Of a DNA stretch of 64,000 nt, positions 9,537-53,563 are shown one piece after another. Made by a program: the position numbers and the translations under genes. Under the pieces are notes generated by a model that was not told the origin of the DNA, made no database searches, and was given only the letters and a program-made list of their open reading frames with translations. The stretch comes from Alphaproteobacteria bacterium. GTDB taxonomy: Bacteria; Pseudomonadota; Alphaproteobacteria; UBA828. The stretch lies in the NCBI GenBank assembly GCA_963667705.1, contig OY763937.1, positions 515,821-579,820 of the forward strand, read 5' to 3'. The first letter of the stretch is position 1. Each line of letters starts with the position of its first letter.

Positions 9537-9757
9537 CGACCGGGCCGCAGGCCCGGCCGGCGCGACCGCGCCGGCGCGCGAAGCGCGTAGCCAAGCGAGC
9601 GGAGCGAGCGTCCGTTGCCAGGGATTCCTAACCATTCCCTCACGTTCCATAAGTTACTGAAATAGAGTTGCATATGCAGTGCGCTTGGCCCTTGCGTTCC
9701 CAGCCGTTCCCTCCCATTATTGAAACAAGTGTGGGACGCAACGTGGGTGGAATATCC

Positions 9758-10981
9758 ATGGCATCGTACCGAACGGCCACCGCGAATGCCGCCAGGCCGG
9801 GACGCCTCAACGCCGCCTTCGTCCGAACTGTCAGCCGACCGGGCGTCTATGGCGATCAGCACGGCCTCAGGCTCAGAGTCTACAAGTCCAGAAAACGACA
9901 GTCGATCTCCAAGCAATGGATCTGGCGCGGGACCGTCAACGGAACACGCAGAGATATCGGCCTCGGCGGCTTCCCCTACGTCTCCCTGGCCGAAGCCCGG
10001 CAGACCGCCTTCGAATACCGCAAGACAGCCAGAGCCGGTCTTGATCCGGTCACTCTCAGGCGCGGGCCCGACGTGCCGACCTTCGCCCAAGCGGCGGAGA
10101 TCGTGATCGGCATCCACCGCGAAGGCTGGAAGGACGGCGGCAAGAGCGAGGCGCAATGGCGAGCGAGCCTCAGGGACTACGTCTTGCCGAGGCTGCGCCG
10201 CAAGGGTGTCGACGAGATCACCACCGCGGACGTGATGGCGGTGCTCGTCCCGCACTGGCATACCAAGACCGAGACCATGCGCCGCGTGCGCCAGCGTATC
10301 GGAGCGGTGATGAAATGGGCGGTGGCGCAGGGCCATCGGGACGACAACCCTGCTGGCGACGCCATCGCCGCCGCGCTGCCCAAGGGCGGCAGCGTTCGCC
10401 AGCATCAGCGCGCCCTGCCGTTCCGCGACGTCGGCGCCGCGGTCGCCAGGGTGAGGACATCGGATGCGTACCGGCCTGCGGTGCTCGCCTTCGAGTTTCT
10501 GGTGCTGACGGCGTGCCGGTCCGGCGAGGTCCGGTACGCGACCTGGGACGAGATCGACTTCGCAACTGCGACATGGACGATACCGGCGCAGCGGATGAAG
10601 GCGAGGCGCGAGCATCGAGTTCCGCTGTCTGCGCGTGCGCTGGCAATTCTGCGCGAGGCGCGCGATATGAAAGACGGCTCGGGCCTGGTCTTTCCGTCGC
10701 AGCGCGCCCGCGCGATCCACGGTGGCACGGTCTCCAAGCTCATGCGGGAGCTGGGGATCGACGCAGTGCCGCACGGCTTCCGCTCGTCGTTTCGGGACTG
10801 GGCGGCAGAATGCACCGATGTGCCTCGCGAGGTTTGCGAGCTCGCCCTTGCGCATGTGAACTCCGACCGGGTGGAGGCCGCCTATCGAAGGACCGATCTC
10901 TTCGACCGGCGCCGGGCGCTCATGGAGCAGTGGTCGGAATTCATCGTCAGTGGTAGCGAAAACTCCTGCATCACGCCGTGA
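9758..10981 (+). CDS. int: Tyrosine-type site-specific recombinase/integrase (phage P4-like family)
   Basis: C-terminal catalytic motifs (HGFRSSFRDWAAE, LAHVNSDRVEAAYRRTDL with a catalytic Tyr) and an N-terminal arm-binding region. ATG at 9758 preferred within the longer ORF. Confidence 0.9.
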   Translation: MASYRTATANAARPGRLNAAFVRTVSRPGVYGDQHGLRLRVYKSRKRQSISKQWIWRGTVNGTRRDIGLGGFPYVSLAEARQTAFEYRKTARAGLDPVTLRRGPDVPTFAQAAEIVIGIHREGWKDGGKSEAQWRASLRDYVLPRLRRKGVDEITTADVMAVLVPHWHTKTETMRRVRQRIGAVMKWAVAQGHRDDNPAGDAIAAALPKGGSVRQHQRALPFRDVGAAVARVRTSDAYRPAVLAFEFLVLTACRSGEVRYATWDEIDFATATWTIPAQRMKARREHRVPLSARALAILREARDMKDGSGLVFPSQRARAIHGGTVSKLMRELGIDAVPHGFRSSFRDWAAECTDVPREVCELALAHVNSDRVEAAYRRTDLFDRRRALMEQWSEFIVSGSENSCITP

Positions 10982-11213
10982 GGCACGACCAATTCGTAGC
11001 CCATCACTGCCTGACTTAGTGCTTCAGGACGCTTAGGACGGGACGCTGAAGATGCCGACGATTGGGCTGCACCGCCGATGGCTGCACCGACATAGGATCG
11101 GACCAACTGCTTGACCAAGCCGATGCGGGAGTTAACCTTGTCGCCCCGAACGTAAGTTCAACGCCGCTGCAGAGGGGAACTCGCGTGCAGCTCAACCGAG
11201 GAACGGGACGATC

Positions 11214-11456
11214 ATGGCGCGACATGTGAAGATCGGTGAGGCCAAGACCCACTTGTCAGCGCTGCTGGCGGAGGTTGAAGCGGGCGAGGACCTGGTGATC
11301 TGCCGGGGGGCAACGCCGGTCGCCCATGTGACGCGGGTCGCACGGGAGGGCGAGCATGCCAAGCTCTCTGCGACGCTCCGGCGCGAGCGAGCGAAGCAAA
11401 GGGCAGTGACGACCTCCGAGATACTGTCCTGGCGCCATGAGGGACACGCGCGCTGA
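11214..11456 (+). CDS. Type II antitoxin (Phd/YefM or VapB-like)
   Basis: 80 aa. The N-terminal motif GEAKTHLSALLAEVEAGEDLVI is typical of Phd/YefM-fold antitoxins. The stop overlaps the start of the next gene (ATGA). Confidence 0.75.
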   Translation: MARHVKIGEAKTHLSALLAEVEAGEDLVICRGATPVAHVTRVAREGEHAKLSATLRRERAKQRAVTTSEILSWRHEGHAR

Positions 11457-51111: not shown

Positions 51112-51260
51112 CTGCAGAGTCCTCCCTTGCTTGATGAAAAATTCGTGTGAAGTATTGCCCGGCGCTTAGCTGTAACCTCTCAACAAAGGACAATATCAAT
51201 GGGTTTACGCGCCGCGCAATGTCGACCCGTTGCGCCGAACAATGGCCAGAGACGCCCTCG

Positions 51261-52802
51261 CTATTGCCTATGCGCCGCGAAGGCACCAGCGAAACCACTG
51301 TCGCCGTCGGTTGCGCCAAACGTGCCGGCCACGCCCGTCGGGTGTTCACTCGGAGTGGCACCATTGCCAAAAAAGGCAGCACCCCATTCACCATACCACG
51401 CTGCATCATCCGTCGCTCTGCCGGTGGAGGCAAATCCCACCACGGGCATGGCAGAAGAAATTGATGTTGTCTCTAAGCCCAGTTCCTCTGGAAAGGAAGC
51501 GGGCACGCTTGCGAAATTATGGACCCGCCCTCTCAGCGTACCTACATCTGAAGTTGTTCCGAAGTCAGCCACCACCTCGACGTCAGCATCGAAGGACCCT
51601 GCATTTGCACCGCTCGCGGACGAGCTCTCGAAATACATTCCGATCGCCTTGCCAGCATAACTGGCAGTACCAGTCAAGTACTCGATGTGGCTGGGGTTGA
51701 AGGGGTCTCCCCCACCTGCAAGAACTCCAAACTCCGCAGAATCCACGCCAGCAGCCTCGTCCGGCAAATAGAGCCAGTATCCGAAGCTCAGGTAATTGAC
51801 GGTTGATACCTCTCTGGAAGAAGTCGAATTAAGGGTAACCGTCGGGCTACCATCGGCCGGTGTGAATGCCACGCTGTTACCGTACGGATAGTACCCTTTG
51901 GGTGGCGGCGACACCTCAAGCCAGCACGGATCGCTAACGCATGTGAATGTTCCCTGAGTGCCGTCCAAAGAACCCTCAAGTCCACCGCCCGGAACACGAA
52001 CGCCTTGCCAGTCGTGATCTGCGAGAAGATCCGGAATGTCATCGAGTACGATGGTCCGGTCCAAGCGCCCGTATCCGACCCAGGGTTCCTCTAATGCCAC
52101 TGAACGATCCGCGTCAGTCACCAGATTGACTGTCAACTTTCCGCCGGTGGTGTATTGCTTTGTTCCTTCGAGCAATTGCCATTGACTGCCCAGACTATGA
52201 TCTTCGACCAGCTCTGACTCGATTACGGAACGCCCCTGCCACTGCACGAGACTATTCTGCCTGCTAGCCGCGCTGGTTGACGAAAACACAAACTCCAGGG
52301 CGCCTAAGCTGTTGTGATATGGAGCCGCTTGCGCGTACCGAGGTGGTGAAGTTTGCACGACCATTTCATGACCAGAGCCAGAAATGGGTATCGCAACTTG
52401 CCTGATGTTACTGGTTCGGCCCTCGGTTAGGTTAAAGACAGATGCTACTGCGGCGGATGTGGCCAGTGACATCTCGATGTCAGCGCCCCCGTCGTCAGAA
52501 CCTCCGTTTCCGGTGTCGCCACCGTCTGCATCGCTTCCGTCACCTGAACCGCCGTCGTCAGAACCTCCGTTTCCGGTGTCGCCACCGTCTGCATCGCTTC
52601 CGTCACCTGAACCGCCGTCGTCAGAACCTTCATTTCCGGTGTCGCCACCGTTCTCGCCACTACCGTCGCCTGATCCGCCATCGCCAGCACCCCCGTTGTC
52701 GCCGCCCCCCGGGGTTCCTGTATTTAGACCGCCGCCGCCACAGGCGGCAAGAATCAGCATACTCAACGTGGCGGCGACGGCCGCGAAGTGGCGTACATGC
52801 AT
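51261..52802 (-). CDS. Lipoprotein with a G/D/S-rich repetitive linker and a TbpB-like C-terminal signature (surface lipoprotein type)
   Basis: Lipobox LAAC. (GGSGDGSDADGGDTGNGGSDD)x3 linker. C-terminus AAFFGNGATPSEHPTGVAGTF...GAFAAHRQ. AGGAGA RBS before the ATG at 52802. Confidence 0.7.
   Translation of the reverse strand: MHVRHFAAVAATLSMLILAACGGGGLNTGTPGGGDNGGAGDGGSGDGSGENGGDTGNEGSDDGGSGDGSDADGGDTGNGGSDDGGSGDGSDADGGDTGNGGSDDGGADIEMSLATSAAVASVFNLTEGRTSNIRQVAIPISGSGHEMVVQTSPPRYAQAAPYHNSLGALEFVFSSTSAASRQNSLVQWQGRSVIESELVEDHSLGSQWQLLEGTKQYTTGGKLTVNLVTDADRSVALEEPWVGYGRLDRTIVLDDIPDLLADHDWQGVRVPGGGLEGSLDGTQGTFTCVSDPCWLEVSPPPKGYYPYGNSVAFTPADGSPTVTLNSTSSREVSTVNYLSFGYWLYLPDEAAGVDSAEFGVLAGGGDPFNPSHIEYLTGTASYAGKAIGMYFESSSASGANAGSFDADVEVVADFGTTSDVGTLRGRVHNFASVPASFPEELGLETTSISSAMPVVGFASTGRATDDAAWYGEWGAAFFGNGATPSEHPTGVAGTFGATDGDSGFAGAFAAHRQ
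52491..52679 (-). repeat. 63-bp tandem repeat x3 encoding the G/D/S-rich linker
   Basis: Direct reading of the sequence. Confidence 0.6.
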
Positions 52803-53563
52803 TTCACTGCTCTCCTGTATGCAAACACAAGGACACCGGCGGGCGCCGGGCCGTTGCAAACGTCACAGGTGCATGTGAAGCCCCGCCTATTCGCCAAGCG
52901 CGGGGAGCTACCCCTTGCCGGGTTGAGGCTGTTCTATTCAGCGGGCGACCCGACAGAGCGGGCACCCGGACGTTTGCAAGGGAGATGATGGTACGAGTGC
53001 AGGAATCTGTCAACGCCGCACCATTCAGGTGACCTGCAAGAATTATGTGTCAGGGCGAAACGGGGGCTGCCGGCGGTTAGCCCGCGAATTTGACGCATTT
53101 GGAGCGCCAAGCGATCTGGTGGAACATTAACTCTCGACCGTTACGCTGCTGGCGACAAAGGCGGTTCGGCTACAGCTCGAGCGACGCGAGCGGCTGATCG
53201 ACTGGCTGGTAGAGAAACCAAATCTTGGAATGATTCCAGTCGCACCGCGGCCAGCGCGTAAGCGGACAACGGCACGGACTTGCATCGGGAGGGGTGGCGA
53301 CGGCTGCCCAATCTGACAAGGCGATGGCTGCCATGCGATCCGCAATGAGGGAAAAAACGTGGGACGCAAACTACCGAAAATATGAAATATTGTGTAAAGT
53401 CAGTCCCCTATTGAGTGTTTCTTTCGGAGCGAGCGCCCGGCGATTGAGGGATATGAAAGAGTCGGGAAGGGAAGCAGTCGCTCGAAGCTGGGAATTCAAC
53501 CCCCGGGGCGTTCGCTTTGCTTGCGCCCCGCCCTGCTCTACCGTGTGCGGCGGGAGGTGGGCG

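Follow-up and report, generated by a model that had tools for sequence, protein, structure and literature searches.

Islands and satellites that carry a P4-type integrase (DUF4102 / Arm-DNA-bind_3), such as phage P4 or CP4-57 with its AlpA, offer a close comparison for the island described here, which lies in a 64-kb stretch of DNA from an Alphaproteobacteria bacterium (contig OY763937.1; this whole stretch is called the window below). As judged from sequence comparison, the island is very probably a 43.8-kb integrative mobilizable element (IME), extending from 9611 to 53435 with one copy of the core counted, and docked in a copy of an intergenic repeat, named X, which resembles repetitive extragenic palindromic (REP) repeats. 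As in P4-type islands, a three-domain integrase lies at one end, an AlpA-type factor and a primase-helicase replication gene (cf. P4 alpha) are present, and the target appears as a complete copy beside int at the left attachment site (attL) and as a partial 3' copy at the far end. Repeated motifs also stand on both arms of the element's own attachment site (attP), those of the window being putative arm sites. P4-type islands use the 3' end of a tRNA or tmRNA gene as their chromosomal site (attB). The window element does not; it targets a REP-like intergenic repeat present in many copies, which is neither a tRNA or tmRNA gene nor a protein-coding one.

In the classification of integrative and conjugative elements (ICEs) and IMEs, some IMEs encode their own relaxase and coupling protein and no mating pore. 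The window element similarly combines int with a TrwC (MOBF-type) relaxase, a VirD4-type coupling protein and SSB, and no VirB4-class ATPase was found between its attachment sites. It shows a recombinase at one end, an insertion absent from relatives, direct repeats that restore the target, a relaxase and no complete mating-pore set. It differs from described IMEs by its cargo, an operon with polyketide synthase (PKS), sulfotransferase and resistance-nodulation-division (RND) genes, and its origin of transfer (oriT) is a candidate only.

Dispersed repeats are targeted by IS1397, ISPpu9/10 and IS110-family elements, which insert in REP repeats and bacterial interspersed mosaic elements (BIME), and by filamentous prophages of Neisseria, which use dRS3 repeats. 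Like the window element, these dock in a short conserved sequence of a multi-copy intergenic repeat and have many equivalent sites per genome. However, they use DDE or DEDD/Piv-type transposases, whereas the window holds a 44-kb island with a lambda/P4-style tyrosine integrase and putative arm sites. No tyrosine-integrase island was described as targeting such a repeat in full-text searches of PMC and bioRxiv, whose coverage is incomplete, so that novelty is claimed with moderate confidence; a literature search for the string of the core sequence gave irrelevant matches only.

A further group, the PIMEs (including GIsul2 and BcenGI2), is defined by the presence of trbJ and trbL in addition to int, alpA and a replicase gene (bioRxiv 10.64898/2026.01.12.698999). 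The window element has in common with them int, alpA, a replication gene and a large accessory region, and its relatives often carry defence systems, but it encodes TrwC and VirD4 instead of trbJ/trbL. Membership among the PIMEs was rejected, as no ORF (open reading frame) scanned had a Pfam match to a TrbJ- or TrbL-type family.

An insertion between metabolic genes

Two host genes border the island:
8871-9536, + strand: O-methyltransferase (O-MT) gene, left flank (Pfam Methyltransf_3, E 3e-67; synteny with L001-L003)
53564-54832, + strand: M20-family amidohydrolase gene, right flank (Pfam Peptidase_M20)

Empty sites were sought by comparing the M20 protein with one genome per species, which yielded three metagenome-assembled genomes (MAGs) of the Alphaproteobacteria/Rhodospirillales, L001, L002 and L003, with M20 proteins 85-89% identical to that of the window. 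In all three, the O-MT and M20 genes are adjacent with no integrase between them, and the spacer measures less than 100 nt in L002 and L003 and about 220 nt in L001. The gene order of the window flanks is kept (SDR, 2OG oxygenase, OmpA, amidase, DUF6635, O-MT / M20, GGT, amidohydrolase), the flank proteins matching over their full length with 79-92% amino acid identity (61-64% for an unannotated ORF). From this conserved order and adjacency, the about 44 kb between the O-MT stop (9536) and the M20 start (53564) is read as an insertion relative to the nearest available relatives, in agreement with an earlier note on this DNA, which had placed a mobile element of about that size between metabolic flanks. 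Two further genomes with an M20 gene, L004 and L005, were set aside as empty sites, their left neighbours being different and thus uninformative.

Pfam annotation likewise agrees that the genes on both sides are metabolic. The left flank comprises glutamate dehydrogenase, SDR, 2OG oxygenase, OmpA, amidase, DUF6635 and O-MT genes, and the right flank M20 amidohydrolase, GGT, amidohydrolase and DEAD helicase genes followed by a tRNA-Gly(GCC) gene at 59767-59841. The G+C content is about 72% in the flanks (0.72-0.74 on the right), 63-70% over 9-46 kb and 0.53-0.66 in a low-GC islet at 46-53 kb. The right flank becomes homologous to the empty sites only from about 53513 onwards, and the sole empty-site partner to the left of the island is the X of L001, which matches 9542-9610. 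Nothing similar to 9611-9757 or 53240-53424 occurs in the empty sites L001-L003.

Junctions in a split repeat

The following features surround the two junctions:
9541-9599, + strand: 5' part of host repeat X, forming the B arm of attL (three short GC-rich hairpins and GTAGCCAAGCGAG)
9600-9614, + strand: attL core, CGGAGCGAGCG (9600-9610) followed by TCCG, the T at 9611 being the attP-type base
9611-9757, + strand: P' arm of attP, element DNA from the core to int (not in L001-L003; kept in L081, L082, L083, L142 and L144)
9692-9703, - strand: CTGGGAACGCAA, inverted relative of the 11-mer discussed below (inverted repeat 9692-9700 / 9733-9741; candidate arm-type site)
9731-9741, + strand: first copy of the 11-mer GTGGGACGCAA, 120 nt inside the element from the core and overlapping the int leader (candidate arm-type Int site)
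53240-53424, + strand: P arm of attP, right-end element DNA (not in L001-L003; about 180 nt kept in L088, L095, L112 and L132)
53359-53369, + strand: second copy of the 11-mer, 55 nt inside the element from the core (candidate arm-type Int site)
53425-53439, + strand: core of the right attachment site (attR), CGGAGCGAGCG (53425-53435) followed by CCCG, the C at 53436 being the host-type base
53436-53462, + strand: 3' part of host repeat X, forming the B' arm of attR (26/27 match to the X of L001)

The X of L001 (about 130 nt) matches the window at 9542-9610 (28/32, 9/9 and 15/15) and again at 53425-53451 (26/27). Its left match stops at CGGAGCGAGCG and its right match starts there, a pattern that is best read as the signature of a split target. 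Together with the bases that follow, CGGAGCGAGCG forms at both places a junction repeat of 15 nt with one T/C mismatch, and without mismatch the 15-mer core occurs at only these two places. A profile of X (nhmmer), built from free copies of the repeat with the window left out, also matches the window twice, with profile positions 18-100 at 9534-9614 and positions 86-123 at 53425-53462, and the 15-nt overlap between the two matches is the duplicated core. When 9611-53435 is deleted in silico, joining 9610 to 53436, one full-length X is obtained (78.2 bits, E 1.9e-25), which compares with 79.7 bits for the intact X of L001 and with 45.2 and 30.9 bits for the two halves taken separately. Position 12 of the core is T in all six attL sites listed and C in all X and attR copies, so strand exchange would have taken place within the 11 identical bases. 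The real junction, as indicated by these comparisons, is CGGAGCGAGCG at 9600-9610 / 53425-53435, within a dispersed repeat.

The earlier note had instead taken the 11-mer GTGGGACGCAA for the attachment core or target duplication, giving an element from 9731 to 53369. The two exact copies do stand on the + strand at the positions claimed, they are the only ones in the window, and shuffled windows contain on average 0.04 matches, none of 100 reaching two. One copy is also close to int, with 16 nt between its end (9741) and the ATG (9758), and the other lies near the shift in G+C. The metabolic, high-GC flank is indeed found to the right of this second copy, but lower-GC, non-flank sequence continues to about 53500 instead of ending at 53369, and homology to the empty sites starts about 145 nt past the copy. 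A single 11-mer pair is weak evidence in such a GC-rich window, which contains 3,650 identical 11-mer pairs; five different 11-mers, CGGAGCGAGCG being one, are common to 9300-10000 and 52700-53800, and 8% of random pairs of 300 x 300 nt zones have an 11-mer in common.

Comparison, moreover, maps the ends 121-131 bp further left and 55-66 bp further right than the 11-mers. A single GTGGGACGCAA was expected in the empty site, yet L001-L003 contain no copy of it, nor anything like 9611-9730 or 53370-53424. These two segments are conserved with the integrase or with attR-like ends in unrelated contexts and are therefore element DNA. Deletion between the 11-mers leaves X broken, as two pieces 180 nt apart, and the 11-mer motif varies among elements whereas the junction CGGAGCGAGCG does not. 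It is consequently most improbable that GTGGGACGCAA bounds the element. Its repetition appears non-random in another sense, as a conserved motif at fixed positions of related elements. Because of this conservation and of its position on both attP arms, 55 and 120 nt from the core, GTGGGACGCAA-type motifs are most likely arm-type integrase-binding sites. A wider family of such motifs in the window was ruled out, matches with up to two mismatches being rarer (15) than in shuffles (23.5). No promoter or terminator turned up when 9480-9800 was scanned for them.

Junctions backed by comparison thus take the place of a boundary that was plausible but wrong, and they give exact, testable predictions for attB and attP. 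The excised circle would read ...TATTGAGTGTTTCTTT-CGGAGCGAGCG-TCCGTTGCCAGGGATTCC... across its junction and the repaired chromosome ...GCGTAGCCAAGCGAG-CGGAGCGAGCG-CCCGGCGATTGAGGGATATGAAAGAG.... A generic search for direct repeats over 9-54 kb returned only chance GC-rich repeats and tandem repeats of the islet, and no boundary information. The proposal that this integrase uses a non-tRNA site is borne out: the tRNA-Gly(GCC) gene is the only tRNA or Rfam match of the window (gathering score), and no tRNA or tmRNA was found at the element ends in the window, at three loci with related integrases (L081-L083) or in L001-L003, the target being repeat X.

One ORF, at 53294-54832, extends without a change of frame from the P arm across attR and X as far as the M20 gene, so that an automatic annotation might add a false 90-aa N-terminal extension to the M20 protein, whose homologues start at 53564.

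Related elements and the dispersed repeat

Seven chromosomal contexts of close integrase homologues were retrieved (L081, L082, L083, L142, L143, L144 and L145). The integrase is 91-93% identical to that of the window in L081-L083, 90% in L142 and 84% in L144; the left neighbours of these five are all different, and at the cargo position they carry other cargo than the window. About 215 nt upstream of int are conserved in the order X 5' hairpins, GTAGCCAAGCGAG, CGGAGCGAGCG, TCCGTT.CCAGGGGTTCC, GGCCCTTGCGTTCC, and GTGGGACGCAA or a variant, the latter 17 nt before the int ATG in the five contexts. Since this string is conserved across contexts, the first 11-mer copy is an internal feature and not a junction. 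The int-side motif reads GTGGGACGCAA in L081, L082 and L083, GTGGGACACAG in L142 and GTGGGACGCAG in L144, and GGCCCTTGCGTTCC, found in the 9692-9703 region of the window, is conserved in related attL regions. L083 is an exception in that its core is CGGAGCGAGAG and the 5' part of X is only partly conserved.

A metagenome collection was also scanned for the 26-nt host-type junction of X, CGGAGCGAGCGCCCGGCGAYTGAGGG, a form present at the right end of the window and in L001 and never beside int. The scan gave 66 exact matches in 58 metagenome stretches (372 kb, 67% G+C). Seven of them (four distinct sequences) are right ends of related elements with a conserved P arm, in which about 180 nt (...CCGCAATGAGGGAAAAAACGTGGGAYRCARACTACC...) are kept and give way to CGGAGCGAGCG at precisely the base where they do so in the window. 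The 11-mer-like motif lies 55 nt from the core, again as in the window, and reads GTGGGAYRCAR in L088, L095, L112 and L132, while TGAGGGAAAAAACGTGGGA is invariant in all attR-like ends. The other 59 matches are plain copies of X on either strand, with no arm and no integrase nearby.

The X profile has 100 matches in 1.75 Mb, on both strands and with at most five per locus, and one 20-kb contig contains two free copies together with one occupied attR (L106 and L120). Free copies have variable GC-hairpin 5' modules, and their 3' module is often in tandem. With many dispersed copies on both strands and GC-rich palindromic hairpin modules in mosaic, X as seen in the metagenome stretches shows features of REP/BIME repeats, and by sequence it looks like a mosaic intergenic repeat of that type. 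Its consensus forms three short hairpins, but this fold does not exceed shuffled sequences in stability (z = -0.9), so that a stable structured RNA is unsupported. A known RNA or a tRNA remnant was rejected, the X of L001 having no Rfam match down to E=1 and no ARAGORN match.

It could be argued that X belongs to the element, whose left end would then lie at about 9541, right after the O-MT stop, and that the other copies are solo scars or spread element ends. The 5' part of X is indeed conserved beside int in the window, L081, L082, L142 and L144, and the repeat is rare in the lineage of the window, with a single, split copy in the 64-kb window and a single copy in the roughly 50 kb of L001-L003. 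However, the 59 matches with neither arm nor integrase would all have to be such remnants, although many have the host-type 3' part and variable 5' modules and some form tandem arrays. Free X always continues with the C-type CCCGGCGAYTGAGGG, as at attR, and never beside int, and L142 contains two successive copies of X, the first complete and the second cut short precisely at the core. We consider this possibility quite unlikely.

Docking of the element in a host-borne X remains the preferred interpretation, and since X is multi-copy, the element family would have many alternative docking sites. It seems likely that the clade of integrases at least about 84% identical to this one gave up single-copy tRNA targets in favour of a dispersed repeat of REP/BIME type, with many interchangeable docking sites per genome and very different cargo. 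The cargo of the X-docking islands ranges from the PKS cluster of the window to restriction/defence genes or transposases in relatives. The more distant homologues L143 (77% identity) and L145 (79%) have other cores and no X, so the X-targeting integrase group is narrow. Defence genes include McrBC and a type ISP enzyme in L142 and GmrSD in L145.

That a lambda/P4-style integrase brings a large island into an intergenic repeat with many copies has several implications. If general, such islands could land at many chromosomal positions, pile up in tandem and seed rearrangements between copies. Island-finding programs would also place their ends wrongly when they presuppose a tRNA or gene target or rely on the closest short direct repeat. 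Among uncultured Alphaproteobacteria, the family appears to move defence systems as well as the cluster of PKS, sulfotransferase and efflux genes seen in the window.

Several observations nevertheless weigh against this interpretation. The identity of the cores extends over 11 nt only, a length common by chance in the window, and it is the comparative pattern that makes the case. Exact-protein look-ups of O-MT, M20 and Int gave no record and hence no strain-level empty site. In the orthologous O-MT/M20 spacer, X was found in L001 only (9784-9917, - strand), in the opposite orientation to the split X of the window, and the spacers of L002 and L003 have no X; the orientation could reflect an independent insertion or an inversion of the repeat. 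The ancestral site of the window lineage is accordingly deduced from the repeat family and not seen directly. Scans of viral contigs for the attL/attP core and for the P arm gave 0 matches, with no excised circle or attP junction, and a plasmid search with attL and int found only distant integrase fragments (70-78% identity) and no attP junction. What speaks for the arm-site role of GTGGGACGCAA is its position and conservation only, and the conservation of the first copy possibly stems from its location in the int leader or promoter instead. Finally, the AEP-helicase gene is frameshifted, and the element may be decaying.

Some further observations concern X and the related loci. The 8-mer TGAGGGAA is found on the P arm (53346-53353, + strand), in the 3' module of X (53444-53451, + strand, reading TGAGGGAT) and on the P' arm (9637-9644, - strand). 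It may be a protein-binding site common to element and repeat, and its distribution hints at a common binding protein or at co-evolution of the two. At 9683-9857 of L142, on a 4.17-Mb contig, two X copies stand in tandem and the second is occupied by the element whose integrase is 90% identical; its int-proximal cargo consists of McrBC and a type ISP restriction-modification enzyme. In L145 (9493-11260, on a 602-kb contig), where the core is CCGGAGGGAGTGACCG, genes for AlpA, a coupling protein and SSB stand directly upstream of int, an arrangement suggestive of either a tandem of two elements or an attP-like junction. In L143 (1126-11221), three further P4-type integrase genes or fragments and several insertion sequence (IS) elements lie within 9 kb upstream of the homologue, and this region is an integration hotspot with no X repeat.

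Backbone, transfer and cargo

Coding frames were chosen by third-position G+C and scanned against Pfam and NCBIfam. The backbone of the element comprises:
9758-10981, + strand: int, P4-type tyrosine integrase of 407 aa, 147 nt from the attL core (homologues 84-93% identical beside X elsewhere)
11214-11456, + strand: Phd-like antitoxin (Pfam PhdYeFM, E 1.4e-4, under the gathering score)
11456-11857, + strand: PIN toxin (Pfam PIN, E 2.8e-13)
11975-14430, + strand: AEP primase (AEP-TOTE) and SF2 helicase (Pfam; ORFs 11975-12874 and 12493-14430)
32404-36855, - strand, stop-to-stop: TrwC-type relaxase-helicase (Pfam TrwC, E 9e-68, and AAA_30; 83% identical to the relaxase of L082)
36905-36955: inverted repeat just upstream of the relaxase gene, with two 16-nt arms 81% complementary (possible oriT)
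39801-40382, - strand, stop-to-stop: SSB gene (Pfam SSB, E 2.5e-24)
42984-44975, + strand, stop-to-stop: VirD4/TraG-type coupling protein gene (Pfam T4SS-DNA_transf, E 1.2e-39, and TraG-D_C)
45713-45991, + strand, stop-to-stop: AlpA-family regulator or excision factor (Pfam Phage_AlpA, E 1.9e-11)

Pfam confirms the mobile-element genes that had been listed for the region, namely int, the Phd-like (weak)/PIN pair noted earlier as vapBC, AEP-helicase, relaxase, coupling protein, SSB and AlpA; a SLOG-domain protein also belongs to the backbone. The integrase has the domains Arm-DNA-bind_3 (E 1.2e-13), Phage_int_M (E 1.2e-23) and Phage_integrase (E 6.1e-15), and its translation shows the motifs CRSGE, HGFR, LAH and AAY, candidates for the catalytic Arg-His-Arg-Tyr set (read by eye; PDB matches cover the central domain only). 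The antitoxin and toxin are 86% and 98% identical to the pair of L081. No VirB4/TraC-class or other mating-pore family was found in the Pfam/NCBIfam scans of the ORFs called between the att sites, where all unannotated ORFs are shorter than 420 aa. With an integrase, a relaxase, a coupling protein and AlpA present, and no VirB4-type pore gene found, the label of mobilizable element holds. Besides the inverted repeat at 36905-36955, a pair of 35-nt repeats 86 nt apart lies at 37617-37737, each with a palindrome GCCGC..ATGCGGC, and either locus is a candidate for oriT or for a regulatory site.

Sequence comparison can be taken to establish that there is an insertion, that the repeat is split, that the arms are conserved and which genes are present, and these findings suggest the following course of events. 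The P4-type tyrosine integrase would have recombined attP, made of the P arm (53240-53424), the core and the P' arm (9611-9757), with CGGAGCGAGCG in a copy of X between the O-MT and M20 genes. X would thereby have been split into its 5' part and core beside int (attL, 9541-9614) and the core and its 3' part (attR, 53425-53462). The N-terminal Arm-DNA-bind_3 domain of the integrase presumably binds GTGGGACGCAA-type sites to assemble the intasome, the first copy possibly also serving to autoregulate int, and AlpA, to judge from gene content, would promote excision. The circle could then be nicked by the TrwC relaxase, and the VirD4-type coupling protein would deliver it to a mating pore encoded by a conjugative element in the same cell, which would be needed because no pore genes are present. 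The AEP-helicase, probably the replication protein of the element, would replicate the circle, though it is frameshifted here. The operon with the PKS, sulfotransferase, RND pump and radical-SAM genes is cargo, and so is the low-GC islet.

The frameshift results, by alignment, from a 1-nt deletion near 12857, L081 having a single 808-aa gene; it is either a pseudogene or an assembly error, and unless the latter applies, replication of the excised form may be impaired. This broken gene, together with the failure to detect a circular form in viral contigs, raises the tentative alternative that the island integrated as described and has since lost its mobility. The full-length int with its expected motifs, the two intact cores and arms, the open ORFs of AlpA, relaxase and coupling protein, and the possible assembly error speak for an element that is still mobile, and we regard a fixed remnant as the less likely case.

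The cargo operon and the islet comprise:
15381-31820, - strand: cargo operon (stop-to-stop frames; Pfam)
15381-17891, - strand: reductase-sulfotransferase (thioester-reductase/sulfotransferase; Pfam)
18137-25255, - strand: type I PKS with domains KS-AT-DH-ER-KR-ACP (Pfam)
25445-28612, - strand: RND pump (Pfam)
28613-29800, - strand: HlyD (Pfam)
30060-31820, - strand: B12 radical-SAM enzyme (Pfam)
46000-53200: low-GC islet, delimited by G+C, between AlpA and the P arm
47749-50106 and 50206-51111: repetitive ORFs with TbpB_B_D domains (Pfam), in the islet
51261-52859: 532-aa repeat protein, in the islet

The PKS operon and the islet both lie between the attL and attR cores, hence inside the element as had been proposed. 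The PKS is a fully reducing module beside the thioester-reductase/sulfotransferase fusion, and the operon as a whole suggests an exported sulfated, possibly methylated, long-chain alcohol as its product.

The backbone and the 7-kb islet (46.0-53.2 kb) may possibly have arrived in two events, the islet being inserted later between AlpA and the P arm. G+C falls sharply from about 0.69 to 0.53-0.58 right after AlpA, and the islet genes have no counterpart beside the attR ends of related elements, which have other genes there. Yet no recombinase or transposase was found in the islet, nor any flanking repeat that would belong to it, and cargo beside the att ends is variable in all related elements anyway. 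Separate arrival therefore appears to us the less probable course, and it is compatible with an IME docked in X as far as the outer boundaries are concerned. The TbpB_B_D beta-barrel domains of the islet ORFs are typical of surface lipoproteins. These ORFs also contain in-frame tandem repeats at 47014-47433, 49263-49847 and 52486-52697, consisting of 84 nt at four overlapping positions, 195 nt three times and 63 nt three times.

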